DNA of 32,000 nucleotides from Clostridium kluyveri (GCF_001902295.1 NZ_CP018335.1:1852750-1884749), one strand, 5' to 3'; positions 13,585 to 31,342 are shown, counted from the stretch's first letter. Numbers and translations: made by a program. The notes: generated by a model not told the origin, from the sequence alone.

Positions 13585-13613
13585 TTTACTGATAATATTT
13601 TCAGTGATATAAT
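13585..13613 (+). promoter_or_regulatory. Near-consensus sigma-A promoter pointing rightward (TTTACT - 17 nt - TGaTATAAT)
   Basis: -35 TTTACT at 13585-13590, 17-nt spacer, extended -10 TGATATAAT at 13605-13613. Confidence 0.55.
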
Positions 13614-13668
13614 TTAGCATGTATTGATAATGACATTCATTATCAATACATGCTAAATTTATTTTTAC
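13611..13668. promoter_or_regulatory. Perfect 23-bp-arm palindrome containing a 17/19 Fur-box match; may also terminate adh transcripts
   Basis: AATTTAGCATGTATTGATAATGA-CAT-TCATTATCAATACATGCTAAATT (13611-13659), followed by TATTTTT. The core GATAATGACATTCATTATC (13626-13644) matches GATAATGATAATCATTATC at 17/19 positions. Confidence 0.55.
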
Positions 13669-13789
13669 AAAAAGTAAATTTAAAGAATTAATTGGCGAAT
13701 TGTCTTTTTAAATAAGCAGAAAGACCAACTATAATAAGTCAAGTACTTTTTAAAAAGAAGTTATATTAAGTTTATGATTTTAAAAACTG

Positions 13790-15330: not shown

Positions 15331-16950
15331 AGAGTTTTAGACTTTGAATGAAATAAAAAAACCTGATATAAATATATTGTGTCACTTGCAAGAAGACAAC
15401 AACAATCTATATCAGGAGGAAAACAATATGAATAATCGAATTATAGTTCCTAACACATTAATATTAGGGATAGACATAGCAAAGGAAAATCACTATGGTC
15501 AATTTGTAGTAAATGGTGAATATATAAAAAAGCCGTTCCTTATAAAGAATACCAGAGAATCTTTCGAATGTCTATTAGATTCAATCAGACAATTAAAGGC
15601 GAAATATAACTTAGATTATGTATTAGTAGGAATGGAGCCAACAGGTCACTATTGGAAGAATCTTGCTTACTACTTAAAAAGTCAAGGGATAGAGCTATGC
15701 TTGGTCAATCCATATCATGTTAATAAAATTAAGGAGCTTGAAGATAATAGTCCAACTAAGAATGACAAAAAAGATGCCAAGATTATTTCTAAACTTATAT
15801 ATCAAGGTCAATACCTAAACTGCATGTTTGAGGAAGAACTCTACGTAAATCTTCGATTATGCAGCAACAATAGGCAAGAGCTAAAAAAACAGTTTATCTC
15901 AGAAAAAGTAAGACTAATAGCGCTATTAGATGAATACTTTCCAGAATTTAAAAAGATGTTTTCAGATATCTTAGGAAAGTCCGCTTTATGTATACTGAAA
16001 ACATGTCCTTTCCCACAAGATATAGTGAATATAGGAGTTTCTGAGCTTACTCAAAAGCTTCTAGATGCTACACATAATCGTGTTGGATTTAAGAAAGCAG
16101 AGCTGGTTTTTAATGCAGCTAAAACTTCAATAGGAGTGCCTGTAGGGCTTGAAGGGGCCAGATATAGATTAAGGCTTATTTTAAGGCAATTAGAAGCTTT
16201 ACAAAAGGAACTAGATGATGTGGAAAAGCTCATGGAAGAATATCTTTTGCAGACAGGTTATTCAGAATATTTACTTAGCATAAAAGGTGTAGGCATAGTA
16301 ACAGCTGCGGGTTTTCTAGCTGAAATTGGAGACATATCAAAATATGACAGCTATAAGCAAATACAGAAAGTGGCAGGACTTAACTTGAAAGAAACCAGCT
16401 CTGGCATGAAAAAAGGTAAAACTAAAATTAGTAAAAGAGGTCGTTCAAATTTAAGAAATATTCTATATCAGGCAGCAACTGTTATGGTAGCTAAGAATAC
16501 TGCATTTAAAGAAATATATACCCATTTAACGAAAAGACAGGAAAATCAATTAACCGGAAAACAAGCAATAGTTGCACTAAGTGTAAGACTTATAAAAGTT
16601 ATGTACACTTTATGCAAGAAAAAAACAACATATACACATGACAAAGTTCATGGGTTGACAAGTTATGGTATATTGAAATTTATAGTTCTTTAAGAGTAAG
16701 GTAAAGCGCGTTCAAACCCCCATAAGGGCTTAATTGACCCAGTATACGAGGATTAATGCTAGCACCTGCTCTAAAATGCAGAACGAAGGAATGTAGAGAC
16801 ATAGATATGTACTCCGTGAGACATGGTAGGGTAAGCATTAGAGCTATATAGGTGTGTTTCCTTCAAAATATTGGAATATCACTTACACTCTTATGCACAC
16901 GTTCAACCTTCTCCATCCAGTATTACCTATATATTCAATATACTCACATA
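15331..16950 (+). mobile_element. IS110-family insertion sequence no. 2, IS1111-like layout (boundaries approximate)
   Basis: Complete transposase gene with a short 5' flank and a ~250-nt GC-richer non-coding region 3' of it (16694-~16950). A 9-bp inverted repeat CCTGATATA/TATATCAGG (15362-15370 and 15408-15416) lies in the 5' leader. Confidence 0.5.
15428..16693 (+). CDS. IS110-family transposase
   Basis: LGIDIAKENHYG, MEPTGHYW, KNDKKDAKIISKL, IKGVGIVTAAGFLAEIGDISKY, ISKRGRSNLRNILYQAA. ATG 15428 has an AGGAGG RBS. The TTG 15344 extension in the ORF track has none. Confidence 0.9.
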   Translation: MNNRIIVPNTLILGIDIAKENHYGQFVVNGEYIKKPFLIKNTRESFECLLDSIRQLKAKYNLDYVLVGMEPTGHYWKNLAYYLKSQGIELCLVNPYHVNKIKELEDNSPTKNDKKDAKIISKLIYQGQYLNCMFEEELYVNLRLCSNNRQELKKQFISEKVRLIALLDEYFPEFKKMFSDILGKSALCILKTCPFPQDIVNIGVSELTQKLLDATHNRVGFKKAELVFNAAKTSIGVPVGLEGARYRLRLILRQLEALQKELDDVEKLMEEYLLQTGYSEYLLSIKGVGIVTAAGFLAEIGDISKYDSYKQIQKVAGLNLKETSSGMKKGKTKISKRGRSNLRNILYQAATVMVAKNTAFKEIYTHLTKRQENQLTGKQAIVALSVRLIKVMYTLCKKKTTYTHDKVHGLTSYGILKFIVL

Positions 16951-17044
16951 TTTAAATTTAACCACTTGTTTATAAATAATGAAATTCTATGAAAATAGAA
17001 GTAAATAAAAGATAAATTAAAATTTATTGAGGTAGGAGAAAAAA

Positions 17045-17793
17045 ATGACAAAAAATATTAAACTTTTTTGTTTGCCATATGCTGGGGGCACATCTATGTA
17101 TTATATGAAATGGAAACAATATTTATGCAGCAATATTGAAGTATATCCTCTAGAAATGGCAGGAAGGGGAAAAAGATTTGGTTCAAATTTGTTTGAGAAT
17201 ATGTATGATGTTGTAAAGGATCTATTTAGTATATTAGCAAAAGAATTAGATAAATTAGGTGACTTTGAATATGCATTTTTTGGACATAGCATGGGAACTG
17301 TTATAATTTATGAACTAATGAAAAAAATAAAACAATATAATTACAAAGAACCCATACATATATTTATGTCTGGTAGAGTTCCACCTAGCTTTCAGGAAAA
17401 AAAATTATTTACAATTTAAGTTATGATGAATTTAAAAGAGAAATATCAAATTTAGGGGGAGTACCTGATGACATAATTAATAACAATGATGTATTTGATA
17501 TATTTCTCCCTATATTAAGAGCAGATTACAAAATAATCGAAACTTATAAATTTTCAAAATCCCCTAAATGGAATTTTGACATTTCAGTATTAAATGGGAG
17601 AAATGATCCAGAGGTTGAGGATTATTATATTTCTAAATGGGACATGTATACAAATAAAAAATGTAATTTTTATTTATTTGATGGAGGTCATTTCTTTATT
17701 AATGAAAATACAGTTGAAGTTGTAGAGAAAATAAATAATATTCTTATTAGAAATTTAGGAGAAAAATCTTTTTTCAAGGAGGCTAAAATTTAG
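17045..17793 (+). pseudogene. Type II thioesterase (GrsT/TE-II family) interrupted by a frameshift in an A8 run
   Basis: N-terminal part in frame 1 (LFCLPYAGGTSMYY, GHSMG) stops at 17419. The C-terminal part (LSYDEFKREISNLGGVPDD..., LPILRADYK, GGHFF) continues in another frame to TAG 17791-17793. One extra A in A8 (17397-17404) restores a single ~249-aa ORF. Confidence 0.85.
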
Positions 17794-18776
17794 TGTTTAA
17801 CAATGAAAAGTTTTTTTGGTCACCTGCGGCAAGATGGGAAAAAAAAGATGGTCAGGTAAAGATTGAAGTATTTTGCTATAAAGATTATATTGTTGAGTTA
17901 TTTCCTGAATTCTATTTTTTTACACAGAAAGGTGTTTATGTAAATGACTTAATTGATAAATTTCCGAAATATGATAAGGACAGATTAAAAAGTTTTATAC
18001 AGGATTTAATTAGAAAAAAGATATTAGTTGATTCTCCACTTATACCTCATGAATTATTTTATAGTGGAAATTACCTTTTTCAAAATAAACATAGTGAAAA
18101 TATAAAATATGATAAATTAGAATTTGAAAATTTTAAGAGTATGCAGTTAAATAGAAATTACAAAACGCCTAAGGGTCTGAAGATAAATTTATATAGTGAT
18201 GAGCAATATCCCTATTGTATAAGTGAACGAAAAACATGCAGAAGTTTTAATACAAATGAAATAATTAGTTTTGAAGTATTCTCAAAATTAATAGCTGTTT
18301 TTAGACAAAGAAGAATTAATGGACAAATTAAATATTACTATGCTAGTGCTGGAGGACTTTACCCTATAGACATATATATTTATATAAAGGAGAAGAGAGT
18401 AGAAAATTTAAAACAAGGTCTTTATTATTATAGTCCTTTAGATAATTCAATAAATATTGTAGATGAATGTTGTCATGTAAACAAAAATGCACACTATTTT
18501 ATGAATCAATCTATATTTAATCAATCGGCTTTTTCAATTTTTTTTATTTATAATATGGAAGTTACAATGCCTAAATATGGTGGTATCGGATATTTATATT
18601 CGTGTATAGATATAGGTATAATGGTAAGTTCACTTACTTTTGTTGCAGGACTATATAATATTGGTTTATGTTCTATAGGAGATATGAATTTTCATAAAAT
18701 AGAAAAATATTTTCAGCTTAATAAAAATCAAGTTTATATACATACAGTGGAATTAGGACTGAAGTTAGAAGATTAA
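17793..18776 (+). CDS. SagB/McbC-type (nitroreductase-fold, FMN) dehydrogenase; probable azoline oxidase
   Basis: RKTCRSF, YYASAGGLYPIDIYIYI, GLYYYSP and a C-terminal GD...F pattern typical of the SagB/ThcOx family. The GTG start overlaps the TE-II stop (TAGTG). AAGGAGG RBS. Family call is by motif only. Confidence 0.7.
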   Translation: MFNNEKFFWSPAARWEKKDGQVKIEVFCYKDYIVELFPEFYFFTQKGVYVNDLIDKFPKYDKDRLKSFIQDLIRKKILVDSPLIPHELFYSGNYLFQNKHSENIKYDKLEFENFKSMQLNRNYKTPKGLKINLYSDEQYPYCISERKTCRSFNTNEIISFEVFSKLIAVFRQRRINGQIKYYYASAGGLYPIDIYIYIKEKRVENLKQGLYYYSPLDNSINIVDECCHVNKNAHYFMNQSIFNQSAFSIFFIYNMEVTMPKYGGIGYLYSCIDIGIMVSSLTFVAGLYNIGLCSIGDMNFHKIEKYFQLNKNQVYIHTVELGLKLED

Positions 18777-18819
18777 AGTTATTACATTGCTGTAAAATTT
18801 ATGGAAGGAGTATTACGAA

Positions 18820-21800
18820 ATGGATTCTTATGTAAGATCGGAGAAGCTTGAAATCAAAAATTTTCCAAAAGAATTGTCGACTTTATTAAAAATAGCTGGT
18901 GACTTTTCCAGAATAAATGGAAGAGGGATATATTTTATTGAAGAAGATGAATCGGAAATATTTTTGCCGTATTATAAATTGTATGAAAATGCAGTAAGAT
19001 TATGCAGTGGATTACAGAAATTAGGTGTAAAAAGGGGAGATAAGTTAATATTTCAGTTAAAAAGTGAATTTAATTTTATAAATATGTTTTGGGCATGCAT
19101 AGTAGGAGGATATATACCGGTTCCTCTCCCAATTTCAAATATATATTCTTATAATTCACAAGATCTAGTTAGATTTTTAAATGTTACAGAGCAGCTATCA
19201 CATCCTAAAATTATTTCTGAAAAATTATTTCAAGAGTTCTTCAATGAAGGTGCATACAGTAATTTAACTGTAATATATTTTGAAGATATTGATAAATCCT
19301 ATGAACAGAATAATAAAATTCAGCTGCCTTTGCCATCTGATATTGCTTTTATTCAATTTTCCTCGGGAAGTACAGGAAATCCTAAAGGGGTTATACTTAC
19401 ACATAATAATTTAATTCATAATATATTTCAAATTAATGAAAAAAGTAAAAGTACCAATATGGATTTTATGGCTAATTGGATGCCACTTACCCATAATCTG
19501 GGATTAATCGCTCTTCATATTGCACCTTTAGGTGCTTTTAGTAATCAAATTAAGTTCAATACAGAGCTATTTATTAAAAAACCTGAATTATTTATGAAAA
19601 AAATAACTATTTATAAAGCTACTATGTCGGGCTTCCCTAATTTTGCATTATCCTTGCTTTTAGAAAGAATACCAGATGATGAATCTCAAAATTATGATTT
19701 ATCTCATCTCAGGCTTATTTATAACGGTGCAGAACCTATATCAAATAATGTAATTCAAAAATTCAATAAAAAGTTTTCCAAATGGTATTTAAATAAAAAG
19801 GCTATGCATGCTACCTATGGAATGGCAGAAGCAAGTGTTATCATCTCTCTTCAGGATATGGATGATTCTATTATCAGTCATAAAATTATAAGAAATGAAT
19901 TTTCGTTAAATAACAATATTATATATTCAGAAGACAATGAAGATACTATAGAATTTGTTGATGTGGGATATCTGCTGCCAGAAATGGAAGTCAAAGTATT
20001 GGATGATGATGATATTTTATTGGAAAATGAAAAGGTAGGTAATATTCTGGTAAAGGGTCCTAATATAACATCTGGATATATTAATGATGATGGAATGAAT
20101 GAAAAATTATTTCTAGATGGATTTCTAAGAACGGGAGATTTAGGATTTGTTAAAGATGGAAGATTGGTAATAACAGGACGCAGAAGAGATTTGATCTTTT
20201 TTAATGGGCAGAATTTCTATGCTCATGATATAGAACATTTATGTGAAGAAATTGATGAAGTTGATTTTGGACAAGTGGCTGCATGTGGGGTTACAAATTA
20301 TAAAAATGGTAGTGAGGAATTAATAATTTTCATACAATTTAGGGAGGAAATTAAAAATTTTAGTGAAGCTACCTTAAGAATAAAAGAATATGTAAATAGA
20401 AGAATAGGACAAAGTATTACCCATATATTGCCTGTAGAATATATACCTAAAACTGCAAGTGGGAAGATACAAAGGCAGGAGCTTGGACAGAGGTATTTGA
20501 ATGGCGAATTTCATGATATCATTTTAATGATAAATGAAGAAATAAAAAACTGTAATAATAAAAATAATACAGCAAGAAATAAAATAGATTTTGATTTAAT
20601 AAAGTTATGGGGCAGAATATTGAACTTGGAAAACATACGAATTCAGGATGATTTTTTTAAACTTGGAGGAGATTCTCTGAAATTAATTCAAATATGTTAT
20701 GAAATAAGTAATATATATAAAGTTGATATAAATTCAAGTGAGTTTATAAAGTTAGGTAATATTTTAAATATAAGTGATTATATTCAAAATAATAAAAATT
20801 TAATAAGTGAACAAAAATATCCTGTATCAGCACCCGATACTAAAAATCTTAATGTTCCATTTCCTTTATCCGAAGTACAGTCTGCCTATTTTACAGGGAG
20901 AAACAGTGGATTTGAAATGGGAGGGGTATCAACTCATATATATTATGAAATAGAAACAAAGCTGGATATAGATAAATTTAACCAAAGTCTCAATAAGGTA
21001 ATAAAACATCAGCCTATGTTGAGGGCCATAATTCTTGAAAGTGGCCAGCAGAAAATACTTGAAAGTGTGCCAAAATACAATATAAAAGTGGAAGATATAA
21101 GTGAACTCAATTATGACAGCCAGCAGGAAAGAATATTGGAAGAAAGAGATAGGATGTCTCACTATATATTTAAAACAGATATATGGCCTCTATTTGAATT
21201 CAAAGCTTTTAAGACAAATATCAACAAATACTATATGCTTATAGGATTTGATCTTTTGATATCAGATGGGACTAGCATGCGTATATTGGTGAAAGAAATA
21301 ATAGAAAATTATGATTGCTTTCATAAAGGCTACCAAAAGCTTAAGTTTAATTTTAGAGATTATGTAACGGCATGCGAAGAATTTAAGATATCAAAAGTTT
21401 ATGAAAATGATAAAAAATATTGGATGGAAAAACTCAAGGATTTTCCACAGGCACCTAAACTGCCTTTAAAGCAGGAGCCTTCAGAGGTGGCAAGCCCTCA
21501 TTTCAAAAGACAGAATAAAATTATAAGTAAAAATATCTGGGAGAATATAAAGAAAAAGGCCAAAGAAAATAATATAACTCCTTCCGTACTTTTGTGTACA
21601 GCCTATGCACAGATACTAGGCCACTGGAGCAATGAACCTCATCATGCGATAAATGTGACTGTATTTACAAGATATCCTTTCCATGAGGATGTAAATAAAA
21701 TCATAGGGGATTTTACATCAGTAATGTTACTTGATGTAGATTTAAAAACCGGTACATCTTTTTGGGAAAAGGCATCAGAGGTTCAAAGTTCTATGATGGA

Positions 21801-22401
21801 AGCGCTGGAGCACAGACACTACGATGGAATTAATTTTATAAGGGATATATCAAAATATAATGGATTGGGAGCAAAAGCTGTAATGCCTATAGTGTTTACA
21901 AGTCTACTGTTTTCCATGGACAATGAGGAAAAAGGAGTAGGATTTACAGAACTTGGGGATATAAAAATGGGAGTAAGCCAGACATCACAGGTATATCTGG
22001 ATTATCAGGTAATGGAGATAGGGGGAAATTTATCTATAACATGGGACTATGTAGAAGAATTGTTTGAAGAAGATATGATAAATACCATGTTCCAGCAGTA
22101 TGTAAAGCTGGTGGAAAGTTTACTGGAACACAGGGAATATAGACTTCAGGCAGAAGAAGAGACAATAAAATTTATAGATAATTATAACCACAGGGAAGAA
22201 TTCATACCTGAAACCACCCTTCAGGAGCTGTTTATGAAAAAGGCAAAGGAATGCCCTGAAAATACAGCTCTCATATTTGAAGACAGAAGTATGAACTATA
22301 GGGAACTGGATATTAAATCAAACCAGGTAGCCCATTACTTAAAACAGCAGGGATTTGGCAGCAGTGACTTTATAGGCATAGGTAGTGTAAAAAGTTTATG
22401 A
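18820..22401 (+). CDS. NRPS megasynthetase, 5' fragment (FAAL - carrier - heterocyclisation (Cy) - start of A domain); native coding sequence ends at 22380 where an IS is inserted
   Basis: FAAL motifs FSSGSTGNPKGV, YGMAEA, TGRRRDLIFFNGQNFYAHDIE. Carrier LGGDSL. Cy motifs FPLSEVQSAYFTGR, RAIILESGQQ, DLLISDGTS, GDFTS, PIVFTSLL, SQTSQVYLDYQ. A1 motif MNYRELD. The last 7 codons plus the stop are IS-derived. Confidence 0.92.
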   Translation: MDSYVRSEKLEIKNFPKELSTLLKIAGDFSRINGRGIYFIEEDESEIFLPYYKLYENAVRLCSGLQKLGVKRGDKLIFQLKSEFNFINMFWACIVGGYIPVPLPISNIYSYNSQDLVRFLNVTEQLSHPKIISEKLFQEFFNEGAYSNLTVIYFEDIDKSYEQNNKIQLPLPSDIAFIQFSSGSTGNPKGVILTHNNLIHNIFQINEKSKSTNMDFMANWMPLTHNLGLIALHIAPLGAFSNQIKFNTELFIKKPELFMKKITIYKATMSGFPNFALSLLLERIPDDESQNYDLSHLRLIYNGAEPISNNVIQKFNKKFSKWYLNKKAMHATYGMAEASVIISLQDMDDSIISHKIIRNEFSLNNNIIYSEDNEDTIEFVDVGYLLPEMEVKVLDDDDILLENEKVGNILVKGPNITSGYINDDGMNEKLFLDGFLRTGDLGFVKDGRLVITGRRRDLIFFNGQNFYAHDIEHLCEEIDEVDFGQVAACGVTNYKNGSEELIIFIQFREEIKNFSEATLRIKEYVNRRIGQSITHILPVEYIPKTASGKIQRQELGQRYLNGEFHDIILMINEEIKNCNNKNNTARNKIDFDLIKLWGRILNLENIRIQDDFFKLGGDSLKLIQICYEISNIYKVDINSSEFIKLGNILNISDYIQNNKNLISEQKYPVSAPDTKNLNVPFPLSEVQSAYFTGRNSGFEMGGVSTHIYYEIETKLDIDKFNQSLNKVIKHQPMLRAIILESGQQKILESVPKYNIKVEDISELNYDSQQERILEERDRMSHYIFKTDIWPLFEFKAFKTNINKYYMLIGFDLLISDGTSMRILVKEIIENYDCFHKGYQKLKFNFRDYVTACEEFKISKVYENDKKYWMEKLKDFPQAPKLPLKQEPSEVASPHFKRQNKIISKNIWENIKKKAKENNITPSVLLCTAYAQILGHWSNEPHHAINVTVFTRYPFHEDVNKIIGDFTSVMLLDVDLKTGTSFWEKASEVQSSMMEALEHRHYDGINFIRDISKYNGLGAKAVMPIVFTSLLFSMDNEEKGVGFTELGDIKMGVSQTSQVYLDYQVMEIGGNLSITWDYVEELFEEDMINTMFQQYVKLVESLLEHREYRLQAEEETIKFIDNYNHREEFIPETTLQELFMKKAKECPENTALIFEDRSMNYRELDIKSNQVAHYLKQQGFGSSDFIGIGSVKSL

Positions 22402-24225
22402 AAAACTATAAAATAATAAATTTTTAGGGCACCCATAAATGTAAGTTTGTTACAAATAACCGCAGTTGCCCTTGACAAACATTATCCAAATTTTGTTTTA
22501 CCTTGAAGAGGGCGAAGGGAAAAGATATAAAGACATGACAAAAAGCCCTCTGAAAACCAATTTTAAAATTTGTCTAATTCGGTTTGTCAAGGGTTCGCTG
22601 ACGCCAACAGCTGCTTTAGGGCTCAGCTAAATAGATATAAAATCTTAGGAGGTAGCCTGTGATATACAATAGTCTTGAGCTAGTTCAACAAGCTTACACC
22701 AACGAGCTGGCATGGTTTGAAGACTTTGAAGTACAGGTATTTGAACTGGAACCTTATGATTAAGTGTTGAATGAGTTCTTAGAAAATTAAAATATGCAGC
22801 AAATAATGTTACAAATGCTATAGAACCATCTGAACTATTAAAACCACAGGTTGTCCTATAACTGCCTTTAAAGGTTCTATTAAGACGTTCAATTATCTGT
22901 TTTAAAGGTCTGTATTCCTTTGAAACGTCATCATTGTTTGTAAGACCTATGACTTGAGTAATATCGAAGTTAATGTCTTCGCTTGCGAAAAAATGTTGTG
23001 CCAACAAGTAGATTGGATTACCATCAACAATGAAATTTAGTTTTTTAGGTATATCCTTAAGCTTTGATAAAACGTCGTCTAAAGCTTTAACTGCTGAAAG
23101 AGTATCTCTATTTGGTGAAACTCTATAAGAAAGAATAATTTTCTTAACAGAGTCAAAGAAAAAGAAGATATACTGCCATTTACCGTTAACTTTTATGTAT
23201 GTTTCATCACCACAAAAAGAATTAGATAACTCATAATTGTAGTTATCAACAAAGGGCTTTACCACATGGGATACAGCATCAGCGTAGTTTAAAACTGTTT
23301 GATGAGATATTTTAATACCGTGAATATCCCTCATTATTGAAGCCGTCTGTCTTGAAGACATATGGTAGTTTATGTAGTAAGACATAATTAATCCTAAAGT
23401 ATGAGACGAAACCATTATTTTAGGCAGACTAATTTTAGATTTAACAGGGCTTTTACTGCTAAAAGGCTTATAGTCAAAAGTAAATTCCCTAGTTATATAT
23501 CTAACTTTATAGTTGTGAGGGTTATTTTTAAAGTCTTCTCTTTCTTTTTTAGTCATTGAAGCTAAATTGGTTTTATAAAAATCACACTCATCATTCTTAC
23601 ATTTATGCACATAAAAGTCCTTGCGAGTTTTGATTTTTTCAAGTGTTTTACCACAGTAAGGACATTTTAAAATAACGGACTTTTGAAAATAATTTTTAGG
23701 GTTAAATACTGTGTTGCATACCTTACAAAGGTATTGACCTCTGCCACCATTATTATCGTAAAGATACTGGTGGGGAGCACCACATTTAGGACACTTAACT
23801 TCTTTAGGAATGATAGTTTTATTCTTACGTGGCTTAACAGGTGTAAGTTCTTTCTTGTGACTTTCAAAATAGTTATGTAGAAGAACTTTATAATCAAGCT
23901 TTTCAGGTATTTCAAATATAGGTATTTTGTCTACCTGAAGCTTTCTATATTCCTTTTTTACTGGTTCGTCAGAGGCAGGGGTAAACATGGGTTTGCCAAC
24001 TAAAAGAATAAATAATAGGTTAATCATATTGTGTAGGTAAATAATGTATTTAACAAGAAACTCGTTAATCATGCTTGTAGCTTGCTCCTTTCTTCTTTGC
24101 TGGAAATTATGACTTTGCAAATCACTAATTTACCCTAAAAGTTTGGGGGGAGCAAGTTATTTATATAAAATTGTTAAAAATAAAAGGGTTACGTCAGAAA
24201 TTATATTAAAATTTTTGACAATACC
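22381..24225 (-). mobile_element. IS6-family-like insertion sequence (1,845 bp) with 8-bp target-site duplication
   Basis: TSD TAGGCATA at 22373-22380 and 24226-24233. Terminal IRs GGTAGTGTAAAAAGTTTA and GGTATTGTCAAAAATTTT match 14/18 and follow the IS26/IS257-like GGT..TGT..AAA.TTT pattern. IS240-type DDE transposase. Confidence 0.85.
22645..24072 (-). CDS. IS6/IS240-type DDE transposase with a long N-terminal zinc-finger extension
   Basis: CPKCG...CKVC and CPYCG...CKNDEC zinc-finger pairs. DDE core: GDETYIKVNGKWQYIFFFFD, VDGNPIY, IERLNRTFK. The ORF track starts at TTG 24120. ATG 24072 has an AAGGAG 12 nt upstream. The start is uncertain. Confidence 0.85.
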   Translation of the reverse strand: MINEFLVKYIIYLHNMINLLFILLVGKPMFTPASDEPVKKEYRKLQVDKIPIFEIPEKLDYKVLLHNYFESHKKELTPVKPRKNKTIIPKEVKCPKCGAPHQYLYDNNGGRGQYLCKVCNTVFNPKNYFQKSVILKCPYCGKTLEKIKTRKDFYVHKCKNDECDFYKTNLASMTKKEREDFKNNPHNYKVRYITREFTFDYKPFSSKSPVKSKISLPKIMVSSHTLGLIMSYYINYHMSSRQTASIMRDIHGIKISHQTVLNYADAVSHVVKPFVDNYNYELSNSFCGDETYIKVNGKWQYIFFFFDSVKKIILSYRVSPNRDTLSAVKALDDVLSKLKDIPKKLNFIVDGNPIYLLAQHFFASEDINFDITQVIGLTNNDDVSKEYRPLKQIIERLNRTFKGSYRTTCGFNSSDGSIAFVTLFAAYFNFLRTHSTLNHKVPVQIPVLQSLQTMPARWCKLVELAQDYCISQATS

Positions 24226-24233
24226 TAGGCATA

Positions 24234-27053
24234 TATGGGGAAAGAAATATGAAAACCATAGTAAATATAATGGGAGTGTTAAAGGCAGGAGCAGCGTATG
24301 TACCTGTAGATCCAAAATATCCTGAAGATAGGAAAAGATATATACTGGAAAACAGTAACTGCAGGACTATACTAAAGTCAAGTTTCTATGAAGATAAAAA
24401 TTTAAGTATATACCCGGAAACAGTACCCAAAATAAAGTATAATCCACAGGATACTGCCTATATCATATACACTTCGGGAAGTACCGGGAGACCTAAAGGA
24501 GTAGTAATATCTCAAAGTGCTGTAGTAAATACCATAATAGACATAAACAAAAAGTTTGATGTAGGTGAAAAGGACAGAATAATAGGACTGTCATCCCTAT
24601 GCTTTGATTTATCTGTATATGATATATTTGGAGCCCTGTCTTCTGGAGCTTCCCTTGTACAGATTAATGATGTAAGGGATGTAAAAAATGTCATGGATGT
24701 AGTGAAAGAAAAAGGTATCACCATATGGAACTCTGTACCTGCAATAATGGATATATTGCTGGAAAATATGAATTTAAATAGTATAGAAGATTATAAATAT
24801 AATAATGTGTTAAGACTGGTAATGCTGAGTGGGGACTGGATAGGACTTAATCTTCCTGAGAAAATAAAAGAAAATTTTCCAGAAGCCAGGGTAATAAGCC
24901 TGGGAGGAGCTACGGAAGCTTCCATATGGTCTATATACTACCCTATAAAAGATATAAAAGACAGCTGGAGGAGTATACCTTATGGGATGCCTCTTGCAAA
25001 TCAGAAATTTTATGTACTGAATTATGAAATGGAATTCTGTCCTTCAGGAGTACCGGGAGAGCTTTATATTGGAGGAAGGGGACTTGCCAGAGGATATATG
25101 GCAGATAAAGAAAAGACGGAGAATGCATTTATAGAACATCCTAAACTGGGCAGTCTGTACAGAACGGGAGATTATGGAGTACTAAATAGTGAAGGGTATA
25201 TAGAATTTTTGGGGAGAAAAGATCATCAGGTAAAAATAAGAGGACACAGAATAGAACTGGGAGAAATAGAAAATGCACTGATAAAACATGAAAATATAAA
25301 AAATGCAGTGGTTGTAGACAGTAAGGATAATAAAGGAAGAAAGTTTTTGTGTGCCTATATAGTAAGTGAAGTTAGATTAAAAAGAAGTGAGCTAAAAGAA
25401 TATATAGAGGGGAAACTTCCAGAATATATGGTACCTAAATATTTCGTAGATATAAAGGAGATACCATTGACAGCCAATGGCAAGGTGGATAGAAAGAATC
25501 TGCCGCAGCCAGAGGTAGAATTGGAGGATAACTATGTGGCTCCTAGAAATGAAGTAGAAAAAAAATTGGTGGATGTATGGAGTGAGATATTGAATTGTAA
25601 CAATATAGGAATAGAGGATAATTTTTTAGCATTGGGGGGAGATTCTTTAACAGCAATAAAAATGTATGCAAGACTTAATGGCGAATTTGAAATTACTATA
25701 AATGATATATTTCAAAATCAGACAATTTCAAAGTTATCACAAAGAATCAAAAGTAAGAATAATAACTTAAAGTTCAGTATTGAAAAGTACAAGAAACAAT
25801 ATCTTCAAAGGAAAGGCATGTTTTGTGACCTAGAACAAAAATTAGAAAAAGAGTATAAGGATTACAGAAGAAAAAATAGAGAATATTATTGTGAAATTGA
25901 TCTTTCCAAAGTTAAGGTATATGAGAGTATTTTAATTACAGGCTCTACAGGATATGTGGGAAGCCATTTGCTTTATGAGTTTTTAAAAAATACTAATTCT
26001 ATAATATACACTATTATAAGAGGAAGTAGTAGGGATAAAGTTAAAGAAAAGCTTAAGAACAAAATAATATTTTATTTTGGATATGAATTTTATGAAAAAT
26101 ATAATAGTAGGATAATACCATTTAATGGAGATTTGACAGAAGAATATCTTGGATTAAATAAGGATACTTATGATGAACTTGGAAGAAAAATTCACTGCAT
26201 AATAAACTGTGCAGCTAACGTGGCTCATTTTGGTGTATATGATGAACTGTATAAAACAAATGTTAAAATTGTAGAAAAAATTATTGAATTTGCCCAAAAT
26301 TCAATCAAAAAAGATATATTTCATGTATCTACTACTTCTGTTGGAACAGGAAAATTGAATGGTTATTCTAATGTTCTTTATACAGAATATGACTTAGATA
26401 TTGGACATGAGATTGATAATTTTTATTCCAAGACTAAATTTGAAGCAGAAAAACTTATGGTACAGGCCAGAAAAGAGGGCATTAATACCACTATATTAAG
26501 GCTTGGCAATGTGGTATTTAACTCCCAATCTGGAATGTTCCAAGAAAATATAGAAAAAAGTGCATTTTACAACTTGATAAATACTCTCGTTAAACTTGAG
26601 GCAATACCTGAATTTCCATTTGGATTTTTGGAATTTTCATATGTAGACTATGTATGCAAGGCTATGTTCTTGCTTATCACAAGAAAAGAATTACAAAATG
26701 AGATATATCATATAAAAAATTCTAAAAAAATTACTTTTAATGAATTTTCTAATTATTTACAAAAGATAGGTATTGAAATAAATAGGTACGAATATGAGAA
26801 GTTTCTTGACTATTTATACTATAATTATAAAAATGAAAATTTAAAGGATCATATTGACAGCCTATTGGTACACACATACTTAATGCCTTGGAGTGTGGAG
26901 ACATTTTTTGTGGATGCTTCTGAAAAAACGGAAATGTTATTGGGAAAAATGGGCTTTAAGTGGAAAAAACCAGATGCTAAATTGATAAAGAGAATGATAG
27001 ATTATGGTATTAAGGTAGGCTTTTTCGATATAAAGTTAGCAGTTAATAATTAA
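24234..27053 (+). CDS. NRPS megasynthetase, 3' fragment (rest of A domain - PCP - terminal thioester reductase)
   Basis: In-frame continuation of 18820-22380 once the IS and one TSD copy are removed (...SDFIGI|YGERNMKTIVNIMGVLKAGAAYVPVDP). A motifs YTSGSTGRPKGV, FDLSVYD, SLGGATEASIWS, YRTGD, GRKDHQVKIRGHRIELGEIE, NGKVDRK. PCP LGGDSL. R domain ITGSTGYVGSHL, GDLTEEYLGL, YSKTK. The first ATG of the fragment is 24249. Confidence 0.92.
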   Translation, partial: YGERNMKTIVNIMGVLKAGAAYVPVDPKYPEDRKRYILENSNCRTILKSSFYEDKNLSIYPETVPKIKYNPQDTAYIIYTSGSTGRPKGVVISQSAVVNTIIDINKKFDVGEKDRIIGLSSLCFDLSVYDIFGALSSGASLVQINDVRDVKNVMDVVKEKGITIWNSVPAIMDILLENMNLNSIEDYKYNNVLRLVMLSGDWIGLNLPEKIKENFPEARVISLGGATEASIWSIYYPIKDIKDSWRSIPYGMPLANQKFYVLNYEMEFCPSGVPGELYIGGRGLARGYMADKEKTENAFIEHPKLGSLYRTGDYGVLNSEGYIEFLGRKDHQVKIRGHRIELGEIENALIKHENIKNAVVVDSKDNKGRKFLCAYIVSEVRLKRSELKEYIEGKLPEYMVPKYFVDIKEIPLTANGKVDRKNLPQPEVELEDNYVAPRNEVEKKLVDVWSEILNCNNIGIEDNFLALGGDSLTAIKMYARLNGEFEITINDIFQNQTISKLSQRIKSKNNNLKFSIEKYKKQYLQRKGMFCDLEQKLEKEYKDYRRKNREYYCEIDLSKVKVYESILITGSTGYVGSHLLYEFLKNTNSIIYTIIRGSSRDKVKEKLKNKIIFYFGYEFYEKYNSRIIPFNGDLTEEYLGLNKDTYDELGRKIHCIINCAANVAHFGVYDELYKTNVKIVEKIIEFAQNSIKKDIFHVSTTSVGTGKLNGYSNVLYTEYDLDIGHEIDNFYSKTKFEAEKLMVQARKEGINTTILRLGNVVFNSQSGMFQENIEKSAFYNLINTLVKLEAIPEFPFGFLEFSYVDYVCKAMFLLITRKELQNEIYHIKNSKKITFNEFSNYLQKIGIEINRYEYEKFLDYLYYNYKNENLKDHIDSLLVHTYLMPWSVETFFVDASEKTEMLLGKMGFKWKKPDAKLIKRMIDYGIKVGFFDIKLAVNN

Positions 27054-27115
27054 TTCAATGCCATGACAAGGGGCTTACAATACCTTGTACACAATATATT
27101 TTAAGGAGATATAAG

Positions 27116-28417
27116 ATGAATCAAATAAAACAAGATAAGAAGAAGTTTAAAATGACCTATTGTATAGGAACAAATTTTGATCCAGAATTGATTGAAATAA
27201 TTTCAAAGTATAATAAACAAAATATCTTTAATTCTGTTTTCGGTAAATTAAAAAGTGACTTCATTGGCGGAGGTAGAGCATCTACATTTCTTCCTGATAT
27301 ATCTATGAAAGAATTAAAAAGTTATATTAAATTATGTCATGATAATGATTTAGCATTTAATTATCTAATAAATCCTATGTGTATGGAAAATCAAGAAGTT
27401 GAATCGAGCAGTCATATGAAAATATTAAGGTATCTTTATGAACTTATTAACATAGGAATAGATTCTATTACTATAAATTCTCCTTATTTATGTGAAATAA
27501 TAAAAAAACAGTTCCCGGATTTAAAGGTAGTTATAGGATTATATGCTTATATTTACGATATACATCATGTACGATATTGGACAAACCTTGGCGCTGATGA
27601 GATAACTTTAGGACATAAAATTAACAGGGATTTTGAAGCATTAGAAAAAATGCTAATTTATACAAGAGATAAGAATGTTTCAATGAGACTTATTGCTAAT
27701 AATGTATGTCTGCATTCATGTCCTTATGCTGTAATGCATGGGACAGGGCAATCTCATGCAAGTCAAAAATGTAATGCATCAAAAGCAGAATATATAGACT
27801 ATTGTATATTGAAATGCTTAAATGAGAAAGTGAGAAATCCCGTTAATTTAATTAGTTCAGATTGGATTAGGCCTGAAGATATAGGATATTATGAGGAACT
27901 TTGCAAAAAGACAAATAATTATAAATTATCTATAAAACTTGTAGAAAGAACTAAGACTACAGAATTTCTTACAAGAGTTATTAAAGCTTATGCTACCCGC
28001 TCTTATGATGGAAATCTACTTGATATACTTTTATGGCCTAAAATGAGTGAAATGTTAAAAGTCCAAAAAACACCAGAGCAGATGAAATTACTTGCAAGTC
28101 AATACAATGTAGATGAGCTTACCAAATATTTTGATATATTTAATCTTCCTGAAGTATATATTGATAATAAAAAATTAAATGGATTTTTAGATAAATTCGT
28201 AAAAAATTTTGAATGTGATAAAAAACTTTGTGCTGGAATGAATAATCAAGAGTTATCAGAGGGTAGTAAAGGTGTATCTGAAATTATATGTTCCTACTGT
28301 AATGAATGGGTAAATAAAGCTATTTCTTATGACAATGATGAAGTAAAAAAATGGCTGAATAAATATGATGATGTTGAAATGGGATTAAAAGAAAGTAGAA
28401 TATTTTCTAAAATTTAA
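27116..28417 (+). CDS. U32-family (collagenase/UbiU-UbiV-like) protein, tentative
   Basis: N-terminus MTYCIGTNFDPE... resembles the UbiV/YhbV-type start. Alternating beta/alpha TIM-like pattern (DSITINSPYL, VVIGLYAY, ADEITLGH) and a Cys cluster CLHSCPY...C...C..C. AAGGAG RBS. Needs HMM confirmation. Confidence 0.45.
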   Translation: MNQIKQDKKKFKMTYCIGTNFDPELIEIISKYNKQNIFNSVFGKLKSDFIGGGRASTFLPDISMKELKSYIKLCHDNDLAFNYLINPMCMENQEVESSSHMKILRYLYELINIGIDSITINSPYLCEIIKKQFPDLKVVIGLYAYIYDIHHVRYWTNLGADEITLGHKINRDFEALEKMLIYTRDKNVSMRLIANNVCLHSCPYAVMHGTGQSHASQKCNASKAEYIDYCILKCLNEKVRNPVNLISSDWIRPEDIGYYEELCKKTNNYKLSIKLVERTKTTEFLTRVIKAYATRSYDGNLLDILLWPKMSEMLKVQKTPEQMKLLASQYNVDELTKYFDIFNLPEVYIDNKKLNGFLDKFVKNFECDKKLCAGMNNQELSEGSKGVSEIICSYCNEWVNKAISYDNDEVKKWLNKYDDVEMGLKESRIFSKI

Positions 28418-28501
28418 TTCCTAAATTAAATATATATAAATAGGAGTAATTTACCTTTTTATTTTCCTACCATATAATGAATGGTGATATATTTAGGGTG
28501 A

Positions 28502-28530
28502 TACCATATAAAATGGTGAAGCCCTTTTTT
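28502..28530 (+). terminator. Weak candidate terminator downstream of the U32-like gene
   Basis: TACCAT-ATAAA-ATGGTG hairpin, followed by AAGCCCTTTTTT. A near-duplicate hairpin lies at 28468-28487. Confidence 0.3.
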
Positions 28531-28621
28531 AAAGTTAATTATTGCTTATTTACCAATCTTCATTCAAAGGGGATAAGTATTGATTATGCCCCAATAAGTA
28601 AATTCTATCTGAACACATAAA

Positions 28622-29599
28622 TTACTTGATTCGGTGAATATTCCTGTAATTTTTTGGTCCTATGCCATAAGTTTTTTTAAAAATTCCAGCAAAATGTCCA
28701 GCATTATTATACCCTACTTTTGCTGCGATGTTTTTGATACTGTAATCTGAATCTTTTAATAACAAAAGGGCATAATTCATACGCATTTCTCTTAAATAAT
28801 CATAGGCTGTAGCCCCATAAATTTGTTTGAAGGCCATTTGAAATCTTGTTGTGCTCATGTTTGCAATTTTACCTAATTCCACTATAGAAGGATAAGAAGA
28901 TAGATTTTTTTTCATAAAATTAACAACTTTTTTTAAATATCTTAAATCTTTATTATCTAACTTTACACTTAAGGATTCCTGATATTGTCTTTGTTCTAGA
29001 TTGTGGGTAATTAAGGATAGTATTTCTAGAATTTTGCTTTCAAAATATAGTTGCTGGGAAGTGCCTTTTGCCTGGCAATCTCTAATCTGTTGAAAAATAA
29101 AATTTAATTCAGGAATATTAGGATTTTGTGATAAAAAGTGAAAAGCGTCTTTATGATTTTTATAATCTTTTAAATATTCATGATTCAAAAAGTTATGATA
29201 ATAATCTTCAGTTATTAATATTTTAGTAAAACGAGCTGGCTTTCCCACATCACAATAAGCATAGACCAATTTACTAGTATTTATATAGTAACAAATACCC
29301 CTTTCTACAAGGTTCAGTTTTTTACCTTTTATTTTAAAAGAACTGGAATCTGTTTCAAATTGACTTATCTCTAAATAATTTTGACTAATTTCAGATATAC
29401 GTACAAAATTTTCTTTTGGAGTAAAATCTGCAATCAATATAAAGAATAAATTATTCCAATTGATTTTTCGAAGAAATCCTTCTCCATATTGAGGAAACAT
29501 CTTATATGTACTGTCATAAGGGTAAGAAAGTTCAGGTATATATACAAAGTTTAGTTGTTTTAGGGCTATCTCATAATATTCTTCAAGGGATTTAATCAA
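28622..29599 (-). CDS. AraC/XylS-family transcriptional regulator with an uncharacterised N-terminal sensing domain
   Basis: C-terminal double HTH (LSSYPSIVELGKIANMSTTRFQMAFKQIYG and IAAKVGYNNAGHFAGIFKKTYGIGPKNYR). Convergent with the NRPS genes and divergent from the MATE operon. Confidence 0.9.
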   Translation of the reverse strand: MIKSLEEYYEIALKQLNFVYIPELSYPYDSTYKMFPQYGEGFLRKINWNNLFFILIADFTPKENFVRISEISQNYLEISQFETDSSSFKIKGKKLNLVERGICYYINTSKLVYAYCDVGKPARFTKILITEDYYHNFLNHEYLKDYKNHKDAFHFLSQNPNIPELNFIFQQIRDCQAKGTSQQLYFESKILEILSLITHNLEQRQYQESLSVKLDNKDLRYLKKVVNFMKKNLSSYPSIVELGKIANMSTTRFQMAFKQIYGATAYDYLREMRMNYALLLLKDSDYSIKNIAAKVGYNNAGHFAGIFKKTYGIGPKNYRNIHRIK

Positions 29600-29654
29600 A
29601 ATAAATTCCTCCTATTTATACAAATTCATTTAATGTTTTTAGTGTAACATAAAA

Positions 29655-29842
29655 TAATATCACGATAAAGTCAAATAATATCATAATATAACTGTAATCA
29701 TGTTTAAAATATGGTTGTAATACTGTTCACATAAGGGATTACAGAGATTCTTAATTTTAAATTTGAACATGGGTATACATATTGCTTTGATATTTATTAT
29801 ACCATAAAATATGAATAGATAATAATTTTCATATGATAATTC
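29655..29842 (+). promoter_or_regulatory. Regulatory module P2 (paralogue of P1): 21-bp-phased direct repeats, sigma-A promoter and Fur-like box
   Basis: ATATCACgATAaAgt (29657-29671) and ATATCAtaATATAAC (29678-29692). -35 TTGCTT (29782-29787), 17 nt, -10 TAAAAT (29805-29810). AGATAATAATTTTCA at 29817-29831, with a further TGATAAT at 29833-29839. Confidence 0.6.
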
Positions 29843-29879
29843 TAAAATTTTTCTAAGATTATACTAAAGGAGGGAAATC

Positions 29880-29951
29880 ATGAGGATTGCTATTGCGACA
29901 GTTACATCTAAAGATGTTTTAAATGATACAGCAACAAGAAAAAACCCATAA
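29880..29951 (+). CDS. Candidate 23-codon leader/small ORF (MRIAIATVTSKDVLNDTATRKNP)
   Basis: Strong SD AAAGGAGGG 5 nt before the ATG. First ORF downstream of promoter P2 and 26 nt upstream of the MATE start. No homology evidence. Confidence 0.3.
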   Translation: MRIAIATVTSKDVLNDTATRKNP

Positions 29952-29977
29952 TTAGTTAGTGAAAGGAAATGGTAAAT

Positions 29978-31342
29978 ATGAGTGGAGATAGTAGAATAAA
30001 ATTAATGAGTGAAGGTAATATTTCTAAGAGTTTATTTAAATTTGGGATACCTATGATTGCAGCTATGCTTGTAAATGCACTTTATAATGTAATAGATGCT
30101 TATTTTGTAAGTGGACTTGGGACAAGTGCCATGGCTGCAGTATTTGTGGCATTTCCTATATCACTTATTTTTTCAGGAGTAGGATTGACTTTTGGAAGTG
30201 GTGGAGGATCTTATATATCTAGACTTTTAGGAGCAGGAAATAAAAATGAAGCCAGCAAAGTTGCATCTACAGCGTTATTAAGTTGTATATTTATAAGCAT
30301 AATTATAGCTATATTATTTTTGATTTTTTTAAGTGATATTTTAGTTTTTATGGGAGCCACTGAAACTATATTACCTTACGCAAAATCTTATGCAATTATA
30401 TTCATAATAGCATCAATAGTAAGTGCTTTTAATGTTTCTATGGGTAATCTAGCAGTATCCCAGGGTGCTTCAGTCATTTCTCTGGTTTCAATATTTACAG
30501 GTGCTATTTTAAATGTAATTCTATGTCCTGTATTTATATATGCACTTAATCTGGGAGTAAAAGGTTCAGCTATTGCAACGCTGGTGGCTCAAAGTGTTAC
30601 TGCTTTAATATATATATGGTATATTTTTAGTGATAAAAGTTATGTAAAAATATCAATTTCTAATTTTTCTTTAAAGAAAGAAATTTATTCTCAAATATTT
30701 AAAATAGGAGTTTCTATGCTTATTTTACAATTATTAACAACTATATCCATGGGATTGATAAATATGGCAGCTAGTGATTATGGAGATTCTGCAGTAGCAG
30801 CTATGGGAATTGTAACTAGAGTAGTTTCATTAGGTACTTATGTTGTGTTTGGATATATGAAAGGATTTCAACCAATGGCAGGATATAATTATGGGGCGAA
30901 AAATTACACAAGATTAAGAGAAGCAATAAAAGTTTCTCTTAAATGGACTACAGGCTTTTGTGCTATATGGACAATTGTAATGTTTGTTTTTTCAAGAGTC
31001 ATTGTTTCTATGTTCAGTAGTAATCTTGAAGTTATTGATATAGCCAATAGGGCGTTAAGAGCTAATAATATTATGTTTATTACATTTGGTTTTCAATTTG
31101 TATATTCAACATTATTTTTAGCAATTGGAAAAGCCAAGGCAGGGGGTATATTGAATATGGCAAGACAAGGCATATTTTTTATTCCTGTAATATTAATTTT
31201 GCCACAAATCATAGGGTTAAACGGAGTGATTTATACTCAAACCATTGCAGATTTATTTGCAACCATATTGACAGGTGTACTTGCATTAAGTATAAGAAAA
31301 CAGATAAATACTTTAATAAACATGGACAAATTACGGATATAG
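29978..31342 (+). CDS. MATE-family efflux transporter
   Basis: About 12 predicted TM helices. N-terminal LFKFGIPMIAAMLVNALYNVIDAYFVS signature typical of the MATE/NorM family. ATG 29978 is better spaced from AAAGGA than the track start 29969. Confidence 0.88.
   Translation: MSGDSRIKLMSEGNISKSLFKFGIPMIAAMLVNALYNVIDAYFVSGLGTSAMAAVFVAFPISLIFSGVGLTFGSGGGSYISRLLGAGNKNEASKVASTALLSCIFISIIIAILFLIFLSDILVFMGATETILPYAKSYAIIFIIASIVSAFNVSMGNLAVSQGASVISLVSIFTGAILNVILCPVFIYALNLGVKGSAIATLVAQSVTALIYIWYIFSDKSYVKISISNFSLKKEIYSQIFKIGVSMLILQLLTTISMGLINMAASDYGDSAVAAMGIVTRVVSLGTYVVFGYMKGFQPMAGYNYGAKNYTRLREAIKVSLKWTTGFCAIWTIVMFVFSRVIVSMFSSNLEVIDIANRALRANNIMFITFGFQFVYSTLFLAIGKAKAGGILNMARQGIFFIPVILILPQIIGLNGVIYTQTIADLFATILTGVLALSIRKQINTLINMDKLRI

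Follow-up and report, generated by a model that had tools for sequence, protein, structure and literature searches.

The closest described counterpart of the system reported here is the bacillamide pathway, in which, reportedly (from papers of the Schmeing laboratory), a cysteine module of the nonribosomal peptide synthetase (NRPS) BmdB forms a thiazoline and the trans-acting oxidase BmdC converts it to a thiazole. Thiazoline rings are likewise built in pyochelin and yersiniabactin biosynthesis, the genes for which are controlled by Fur and by AraC-type regulators (PchR/YbtA). A further point of comparison is offered by the U32 proteins, of which, to our knowledge, only four have assigned functions, all of them in the hydroxylation of quinones or RNA. 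The four characterised members have been implicated in hydroxylating aromatic rings without O2, the oxygen being donated by prephenate, and most U32 subfamilies are uncharacterised (PMC10990095, PMC11574389). Here, we describe a 32,000-nucleotide stretch of DNA from Clostridium kluyveri (NZ_CP018335.1:1852750-1884749; hereafter the window, with all positions counted from its first letter), which carries a disrupted single-module NRPS gene together with the genes for a BmdC-like oxidase and a U32-family protein.

We read this locus, with a probability of roughly 0.6, as a small biosynthetic operon in decay, made up of a type II thioesterase (TE-II), a BmdC-like oxidase, a single NRPS and a U32 enzyme, with an AraC-family regulator and a MATE transporter alongside. 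The assembly-line logic of such an operon is textbook; what is new is a conserved, undescribed U32 partner of thiazoline-forming NRPSs in anaerobes. The initial annotation of this stretch, made from the sequence alone, had matched the architecture to no characterised pathway, and in the open-access full-text literature we likewise found no characterised pathway with such a gene set, no paper that ties a U32 protein to an NRPS and none that describes the combination of TE-II, oxidase, NRPS and U32 genes, an absence that is not proof. A 2026 preprint predicts a bis-thiazoline product, purely in silico, for an NRPS of gut Lachnospiraceae.

Gene and domain content of the locus

Open reading frames (ORFs) were found where the initial annotation had placed its genes, including the convergent AraC gene and the MATE gene. 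These are a truncated thioesterase ORF (17045-17419), a nitroreductase-family ORF (17793-18776; 327 amino acids), two large NRPS ORFs (18820-22401 and 24249-27053) that are split by a transposase gene on the minus strand, a 433-amino-acid ORF (27116-28417), and the AraC (28622-29599) and MATE (29969-31342) genes. The ORF for the N-terminal part of the NRPS shows 100% identity to a protein annotated from C. kluyveri. The features of the locus are as follows.

17045-17793, plus strand: type II thioesterase, frameshifted (A8 run at 17397-17404; with A9, 249 amino acids with GHSMG and a C-terminal GGHFF)
17793-18776, plus strand: BmdC/SagB-type azoline oxidase dependent on flavin mononucleotide (FMN), 327 amino acids; the GTG start codon shares 1 nt with the TE-II stop codon
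18820-22380, plus strand: 5' part of the NRPS gene, with an acyl-AMP ligase of the fatty acyl-AMP ligase (FAAL) type (residues ~21-572), an acyl carrier protein (ACP), a heterocyclisation (Cy) domain (residues ~677-1103, DLLISDG at 21250) and the start of an adenylation (A) domain (residues 1135-1187)
24234-27053, plus strand: 3' part of the NRPS gene, with the remainder of the Cys A domain, a peptidyl carrier protein (PCP; Ser1658) and a terminal thioester reductase (R) domain (residues 1753-2126, ~25929-27050)
27116-28417, plus strand: U32-family TIM-barrel protein, 433 amino acids, beginning 62 bp past the NRPS stop; sequence identical in the intact allele
28622-29599, minus strand: AraC-family regulator (Pfam/NCBIfam), convergent with the operon
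29969-31342, plus strand: MATE efflux transporter (Pfam/NCBIfam); the gene call starts 9 nt later in the intact allele

Each gene class assigned earlier is backed by Pfam and NCBIfam matches (Thioesterase; Nitroreductase/TIGR03605; AMP-binding, twice; PP-binding, twice; Condensation; NAD_binding_4; Peptidase_U32; AraC HTH; MatE). Along the NRPS, the Pfam order is AMP-binding, PP-binding, Condensation (residues 682-1110), AMP-binding, PP-binding and NAD_binding_4, and the motif positions given by the initial annotation are exact (Ser619 at 20674-20676, Ser1658 at 25644-25646 and DLLISDGTS at 21250-21276).

The domain at 20860-22150 had been called a Cy domain, and its eight best matches among solved structures are indeed all Cy domains, with 406 bits for BmdB, 249 for EpoB, 249 and 204 for HMWP2/Irp2, 169 for PchE and 165 for FmoA3, as against 58 bits or less for ordinary condensation (C) domains. 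Within it, DLLISDG (residues 811-817) replaces HHxxxDG, giving a DxxxxD that occupies the same column in all relatives. Assignment of the Condensation match to the LCL class was considered and rejected, since the solved Cy matches lie far above the ordinary C domains. The neighbouring A domain, for which cysteine activation had been proposed, carries the code DLYNMSLIWK, which points to cysteine: nine of its ten positions are identical to the Cys module of BmdB (DLYNLSLIWK), and the whole code is identical to that of 25 other Cy-partnered A domains. Neither of the two sequence outcomes that the initial annotation had named as refuting, an LCL domain or a code for residues other than Cys, Ser or Thr, was thus obtained. 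The BmdB Cys module is also the best single-domain match among solved structures (599 bits), and the stretches that bear the code can be followed through that alignment (FDLSVYD, WN(S/T)VPA, LV(M/L)LSGDW, SLGGATEASIWS and NGK(V/L)DRK).

The SagB-type oxidase was recognised by TIGR03605 (101.8 bits, cut-off 78.4), as expected from its earlier annotation, and aligns with BmdC, the bacillamide thiazoline oxidase, at 296 bits over residues 5-326 of 327; a generic nitroreductase was rejected on the grounds of the SagB-type model passed and this end-to-end homology. The C-terminal domain of the synthetase, annotated as a reductase, matches the solved thioester reductases 6VTJ, MxaA and AusA (PF07993, 152.9 bits), and contains TGxxGxxG as ITGSTGYVG at residue 1755 and YxxxK as YSKTK at residue 1918. 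An R* (Dieckmann) domain was rejected here, as the catalytic Tyr and Lys are both there. The only other protein found to have this full architecture is P0019, of 2,092 amino acids with 42% identity on metagenome contig L001, where a methyltransferase gene lies next downstream; the remaining close NRPS relatives are multi-module versions.

The core of the locus is thus a thiazole module of the bacillamide kind, loaded through an acyl-AMP ligase and ACP and released by reduction. In the pathway that we propose, the first carrier domain would receive a carboxylic acid, most likely a fatty one, from the acyl-AMP ligase domain, and the A domain would load cysteine. The Cy domain would then condense and cyclodehydrate these to a 2-substituted thiazoline on the PCP, the BmdC-like flavoprotein would oxidise the still-tethered thiazoline to a thiazole, and the terminal reductase would release a thiazole-4-carbaldehyde, or an alcohol after a second reduction. 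This order of 2-substituted thiazoline, thiazole, and 4-carbaldehyde or 4-methanol follows established NRPS logic, and we predict from it a 2-acyl-derived thiazole-4-carbaldehyde or alcohol as the product. The U32 protein would serve as a redox tailoring enzyme dedicated to such thiazol(in)e products in anaerobes; the analogy to UbiU/UbiV, TrhP and RlhA makes it most plausible that it hydroxylates or oxidises the (hetero)aromatic ring without O2.

The identity of the starter acid deserves separate treatment. The loader had been annotated as the FAAL of a lipid-derived product; it is a loader of the acyl-AMP-ligase type fused to an ACP, and a fatty-acid substrate is not proven, the best solved match being McyG. 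McyG loads phenylpropanoids. Other matches in the Protein Data Bank are StsA-type domains and the FAALs 3PBK, 3KXW, FadD32 and FadD23, whereas the score of the NCBIfam FAAL model PRK09192, at 381 bits, stays below its cut-off of 600 and is exceeded by that of a CoA-ligase model. An aromatic or arylalkyl starter, with the U32 protein hydroxylating the aryl ring without O2, would yield a hydroxyphenyl-thiazole aldehyde with no lipid, i.e., a true iron chelator of the aeruginaldehyde (IQS) type. Besides the McyG match, this would suit the Fur-like box described below, a U32 family member encoded between DAHP (3-deoxy-D-arabino-heptulosonate 7-phosphate) synthase and O-methyltransferase genes, and the aromatic rings on which the characterised U32 oxidases act (PMC10990095, PMC11574389). 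We nevertheless consider it quite unlikely: the A8 region of the loader is of the FAAL type and its matches include bona fide fatty acyl-AMP ligases, the cluster is without an aryl-acid biosynthetic gene, and several U32-linked NRPSs have, in place of such a loader, an ordinary A-PCP or no unit before the first Cy module.

Lesions in this strain and the intact allele

The decay of the locus is documented by comparison with an uninterrupted copy, which the initial annotation had proposed to seek in relatives and which is present on CP110856.1 (locus L090), a C. kluyveri-like chromosome of 4.55 Mb. This intact allele encodes a TE-II of 249 amino acids (A9 run), an oxidase of 327 and an NRPS of 2,141, followed by the U32, AraC and MATE genes; the identical U32 protein is encoded there and also on several metagenome contigs. 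The insertions and replacements that set the window apart are listed below.

22381-24225 (1,845 bp), minus strand: IS6-family insertion sequence (IS), with a target-site duplication, inverted repeats, a DDE domain and an empty site in the intact allele
22645-24120, minus strand: IS6 transposase gene, 491 amino acids with N-terminal zinc ribbons and DDE domain
13724-17033, no strand assigned: 3.3-kb insertion absent from the intact allele (BLASTN), with two IS110-family transposase genes
13846-15030, minus strand, and 15344-16693, plus strand: the IS110-family transposase genes of the 3.3-kb block (Pfam)
21213-21962 (NRPS residues ~786-1050), plus strand: foreign patch within the Cy domain (BLASTN against the intact allele)

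Removal of the IS6 element together with one copy of its duplication had been predicted to restore a single gene, and the joining of 18820-22380 to 24234-27053 does give 6,381 nt and 2,126 codons with no internal stop. The element is flanked by the 8-bp direct repeat TAGGCATA (22373-22380 and 24226-24233) and bounded by the imperfect terminal inverted repeats GGTAGTGTAAAAAGTTT and GGTATTGTCAAAAATTT. Aligned to the intact allele (BLASTN), its two flanks in the window share exactly 8 bp, which is the empty site. The element resembles the IS6/IS26 family in its DDE_Tnp_IS240 domain (PF13610, 40.7 bits), its 8-bp target duplication and its short terminal inverted repeats beginning GG; unlike that family, its 491-residue transposase has a long N-terminal zinc-ribbon extension, and its best NCBIfam match, the IS6 model NF033587, reaches 79 bits, under the equivalog cut-off of 125.

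The TE-II gene is broken in the window, where its ORF ends after 124 amino acids, and whole in the intact allele. One A added to the A8 run (17397-17404), the repair proposed earlier, restores 249 residues that are identical to those of the A9 allele. The 3.3-kb IS110 block sits 11 nt upstream of the TE-II ATG, within the ribosome-binding region (GCAGAAAG^GAGAAAAAAATG), and its end recreates an AGGAG-like sequence. The block cuts the operon off from its upstream region. With the IS110 block, the TE-II frameshift and the IS6 element that splits the A domain, the locus carries three independent lesions, because of which the pathway is almost certainly silent in the sequenced strain.

The two alleles also differ within the synthetase. 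The patch in the Cy domain shows 61% nucleotide and ~40-55% amino acid identity to the intact allele, with flanks of 99-100%, and has a GC content of 34% versus 28% in the intact allele. Both versions are Cy, with DLLISDGTS in the window and DFLIIDAES in the intact allele, and the patch looks like a natural sub-domain swap through recombination; among 240 retrieved proteins, no donor closer than 57% was found. Furthermore, the A domain of the window is without 15 residues (EMFFWEMDQHTNVEI) after residue 1372 (24771-24809) that are present in the intact allele, in the loop between cores A4 and A5. DNA identity near the IS6 site drops to 96-98%, and the residues of the specificity code are unchanged.

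The intact allele also reveals the upstream region from which the operon has been separated.

13613-13657, plus strand: 45-nt palindrome with a Fur-box-like centre (consensus match 13626-13644)
12284-13453: iron-type alcohol dehydrogenase (Fe-ADH) gene, which in the intact allele immediately precedes the operon

The Fur-like boxes mentioned by the initial annotation are real as a sequence match, the sole strong one in the window, and lie outside the coordinates given for the locus: GATAATGACATTCATTATC at 13626-13644 agrees with the consensus at 17 of 19 positions, where 0.03 chance matches are expected. An extended -10-like TGaTATAAT (13605-13613) stands just before the palindrome, which in the intact allele is found 89 bp upstream of the TE-II start codon. 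Expression may be iron-controlled via this putative operator, for which the sequence match is suggestive only. The Fe-ADH could reduce the released aldehyde, or simply serve the ethanol metabolism of C. kluyveri.

Downstream of the MATE gene, the intact allele continues (14553-21302 of that locus) with genes for an ABC ATPase, a 541-residue membrane protein, an Sfp-type phosphopantetheinyl transferase, a thioesterase and a second synthetase combining NRPS and polyketide synthase (PKS) domains (C, PCP, A, C, ketoreductase and onwards); the start of the ABC gene is seen in the window at 31668-32000. The thiazole operon may hence be part of a larger biosynthetic island. The unit first delineated was right as to its genes and too small in extent, with the Fur-like/promoter region at ~13.6 kb and more genes downstream in the intact allele.

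The U32-family protein and its genomic contexts

The U32-like call made for the 433-residue protein is supported by PF01136 (Peptidase_U32; 31.7 bits, cut-off 22.4), a match that covers only residues 103-188. The AlphaFold model of the protein is confident (pLDDT 87.6), and its best solved match in Foldseek is the U32 protein Mk0906 (5D88; E = 8e-11, target TM-score 0.73), above generic TIM barrels. An hhalign comparison with four E. coli U32 oxidases (UbiU, UbiV, TrhP and RlhA) gave a probability of 97% (E = 2e-10, 315 columns), with C198 aligned to the first Cys of the oxidase cluster motif. Across an alignment of 26 members, C89, C198, C202, H208, H214 and C234 are invariant, as is a C-terminal set of C367, C372, C392 and C395. 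The protein is a divergent U32-family barrel, and its sequence makes membership of the U32 "oxidase" group plausible.

Homologues number 963 at E <= 0.001, and carry only the database names "U32 family peptidase" or "collagenase-like PrtC family protease". A family-alignment scan of GTDB located relatives in 231 species of mostly anaerobic lineages; a GTDB pattern scan with the single U32 sequence found nothing. Genomic context was assessed for 80 GTDB loci, 46 of them with at least 38% identity to the query. The U32 gene adjoins NRPS genes in 22 of the 80, all of which are among the 46 closest, and it usually follows directly after the last NRPS gene; this adjacency is also seen in C. botulinum, Fusobacterium nucleatum and Anaerobacterium. 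Two features recur throughout the linked synthetases: DxxxxD is present in 52/52 C-type domains with a readable active site, and every amino-acid A domain after a Cy domain has the Cys-type code DLYN[MLFI]S[LM][IV]WK. In other respects the clusters vary, in the number of modules (one to at least three), the loader, the mode of release (an R domain, or none plus a LuxE-like enzyme) and the accessory genes.

This variation bears on the view that the protein is a hydrolase or peptidase (acting in release, proofreading or self-protection against a reactive aldehyde) or an unrelated passenger. The family name, some older reports of U32 proteins as collagenase-like peptidases and the non-biosynthetic contexts of some relatives would agree with it; the place right after the last NRPS gene is, however, kept across differing module numbers and release chemistries, and the 62-bp gap to the NRPS stop contains no predicted terminator. 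With its invariant Cys and His residues, its homology to the oxidase barrel and the TE-II already encoded in most U32-linked clusters, we regard a hydrolytic or passenger role as very unlikely.

A BmdC homologue is found in the window locus and in 13 of the NRPS-linked loci retrieved, and in 13 U32-linked loci the order is NRPS-R, S-adenosylmethionine (SAM) methyltransferase and U32, followed in 11 of the 13 by a class III aminotransferase that would convert the aldehyde to an amine. In aerobes, it is O2 that reoxidises FMN azoline oxidases. The U32 protein could be imagined as a redox helper for azoline chemistry, whether by taking up electrons from the FMN oxidase under anaerobic conditions, by dehydrogenating the thiazoline without O2, or by reducing the thiazoline before N-methylation (cf. 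PchG and the methyltransferase of pyochelin). The strict linkage to Cy/Cys modules, the recurrent BmdC homologues, the methyltransferase gene directly upstream of the U32 gene and the two-electron substrate oxidation with which the proposed U32 mechanism opens (PMC10990095) would all be in line with such a role. It is unlikely all the same, as one C. botulinum locus (L002) has the U32 gene and no BmdC homologue in the 4.6 kb upstream, a distant branch of the family is paired with a type III PKS and no azoline, and no flavin or NAD(P) motif was found in the U32 protein.

The distant branch just mentioned (31-36% identity; Geomonas, Geobacter, Desulfuromonadaceae, Nitrospirota, Dongiaceae and others) is represented by 15 loci (L057, L060, L064, L065, L069-L072, L074, L075, L077, L078, L080, L086 and L087) with an operon of B12-radical SAM protein, UbiE-like methyltransferase, U32 and type III PKS genes, often with a FabF-like ketosynthase (KS) too. 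We know of no described product for this operon, which may be an anaerobic counterpart of alkylresorcinol/alkylquinone pathways.

The occurrence of family members beside methyltransferases, DAHP synthase with an O-methyltransferase, and type III PKSs fits the hydroxylation of an aromatic ring followed by its methylation. With its ring-building and methyltransferase neighbours, its mostly anaerobic lineages and the precedent of the characterised U32 hydroxylases, an O2-independent hydroxylase/oxidase of the thiazol(in)e is for these reasons the best-supported guess. We put forward, tentatively and at somewhat less than even odds, that the 433-residue protein represents a U32 subfamily for O2-independent oxidative tailoring in the secondary metabolism of anaerobes, with Cy/Cys-derived thiazol(in)e rings as its targets here and type III PKS-derived aromatic rings in the sister branch.

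Several observations weigh against the account given above. The CX6CX15CX3C [4Fe-4S] motif of characterised U32 oxidases (C169/176/193/197-type spacing in the E. coli proteins) is absent, with C89, C198-x3-C202 and C234 instead, and UbiU or UbiV taken singly gave weak or no alignment to the family profile, such that the four-sequence alignment was needed. The U32-linked clusters are mutually homologous, and the 22 loci amount to fewer independent events; some members (41-44% identity; Oscillospiraceae) sit in housekeeping neighbourhoods, and the close single-module homologue P0019 on L001 is without an adjacent U32 gene. As to the product, which is a prediction from sequence, the McyG match and the FAAL score of 381 bits against 600 would also allow for an arylalkanoic acid on the loader. 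Finally, the Fur-like palindrome and its T-tract have the score of an intrinsic terminator as well, one that would serve the Fe-ADH gene upstream, and no Fur-like box was found at other U32-family loci, the C. kluyveri locus being the only one with it.

Individual loci of the family show further features. The F. nucleatum chromosomes (L004, L005) carry an all-Cys, all-Cy NRPS of 4,676 residues ending in an R domain, with the U32 gene, beside TrbL, VirB4, VirB3 and TraG; such type IV secretion/conjugation genes suggest carriage on an integrative conjugative element. Two C. botulinum loci at the same site next to glycine-cleavage genes differ in their synthetase, a 1,774-residue A-PCP-Cy-A-PCP-R protein in L002 versus a gene of at least 3,645 residues with three Cy modules in L003, and the identical U32 protein follows either one, i.e., modules have been gained or lost at the strain level. 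In Ruminiclostridium sufflavum (L010, L011; ~7284-18215), DAHP synthase, a close U32 homologue, a caffeoyl-CoA-type O-methyltransferase, a small ORF, a MATE transporter and a UvrA-like protein with a transglutaminase core occur together, an arrangement that resembles a small gene cluster whose metabolite would derive from shikimate and might act on DNA. Metagenome-assembled genomes of Bacillota (L014-L016, L022) have a lipid-type cluster of FabA-like, 4HBT thioesterase, two KS, B12-radical SAM, LpxL-like acyltransferase, U32 and KS genes. The locus looked up in an aerobic relative falls inside a large cyanobacterial cluster, and says nothing on whether such relatives lack the U32 gene.

If the tailoring reading is true, it would connect U32 "oxidases" with natural-product biosynthesis for the first time, and C. 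kluyveri would, under iron limitation, make a hydroxylated acyl-thiazole aldehyde, a metal binder of the o-hydroxy-aldehyde type. Oxidative tailoring of natural products in strict anaerobes is poorly understood, and the U32 enzyme is a concrete candidate for it. The gene accompanies Cys/Cy modules in Clostridia, Fusobacterium, Peptoniphilus, Desulfoluna and rumen/gut Lachnospiraceae, and with type III PKSs in Geobacter-like bacteria and Nitrospirota. Related clusters are carried by pathogens as well as gut commensals (C. botulinum, F. nucleatum, Hungatella, Lacrimispora), and their predicted products, poly-thiazol(in)e aldehydes or amines, might be reactive or bind metals. With one synthetase, one oxidase and one uncharacterised enzyme, the C. 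kluyveri operon is about the smallest thiazole-forming NRPS system possible, and the intact natural allele makes its steps testable.

Surroundings and comparison with known systems

The window as a whole is rich in insertion sequences, with four elements. At 15-7085, genes for a heavy-metal P-type ATPase (HMA domain), an OmpR-type response regulator and a histidine kinase appear unrelated to the operon, and one further element lies in this region.

5677-6477 (orfB) and 6519-7085 (orfA), minus strand: IS3-family element

Among synthetases that terminate in a reductase (AusA of aureusimine, MxaA of myxalamid, MxcG and the archaeal PCP-R protein 6VTJ), the C. kluyveri enzyme finds its counterpart in the terminal thioester reductase of short-chain dehydrogenase/reductase type with TGxxGxxG and YxxxK. 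The class III aminotransferase that follows the reductase in related U32-linked clusters is the classic aldehyde-to-amine pairing of such systems. The C. kluyveri locus departs from them in having a Cy module upstream of the R domain and no aminotransferase in its cluster.

With UbiU/UbiV, TrhP and RlhA, the 433-residue protein shares PF01136, the U32 TIM barrel, Cys residues in the same loop after a barrel strand and a mostly anaerobic distribution. It differs in the replacement of CX6CX15CX3C by C89, C198-x3-C202, C234 and two His residues, and in an extra C-terminal four-Cys module. Its context, too, is distinct, that of NRPS or type III PKS secondary metabolism rather than quinone or RNA modification.

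The pyochelin, yersiniabactin and aeruginaldehyde (IQS) systems resemble the locus in their Cy/Cys thiazoline chemistry (the Cy domain matches PchE and HMWP2), in a possible thiazole-4-carbaldehyde and, for pyochelin and yersiniabactin, in an AraC-type regulator beside the genes and, putatively, a Fur-like operator. In contrast to these, the C. kluyveri locus has a single module, no salicylate synthesis gene and no aryl-acid A domain; its aldehyde would be made on purpose by the built-in R domain, and no receptor gene was identified at the locus.

Finally, the bacillamide system differs at both ends of the assembly line, since BmdB is said to have an Ala-specific A-PCP upstream, where C. kluyveri has an acyl-AMP ligase and ACP, and to release its product through a terminal C domain that adds tryptamine, where C. 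kluyveri has a reductase. Unlike the bacillamide producer, C. kluyveri is a strict anaerobe, and its locus has U32, AraC and MATE genes and no decarboxylase. Between these ends, the two systems are alike: module 2 of BmdB and BmdC (PDB 5T3E, 7LY4-7LY7) likewise combine Cy-A(Cys)-PCP with a free-standing FMN oxidase, by which the thiazoline is made aromatic while tethered, and the C. kluyveri proteins match them at 406 bits for the Cy domain, 707 bits in one alignment for the Cy C-terminus and A domain, 296 bits for the oxidase and nine of ten positions of the specificity code.

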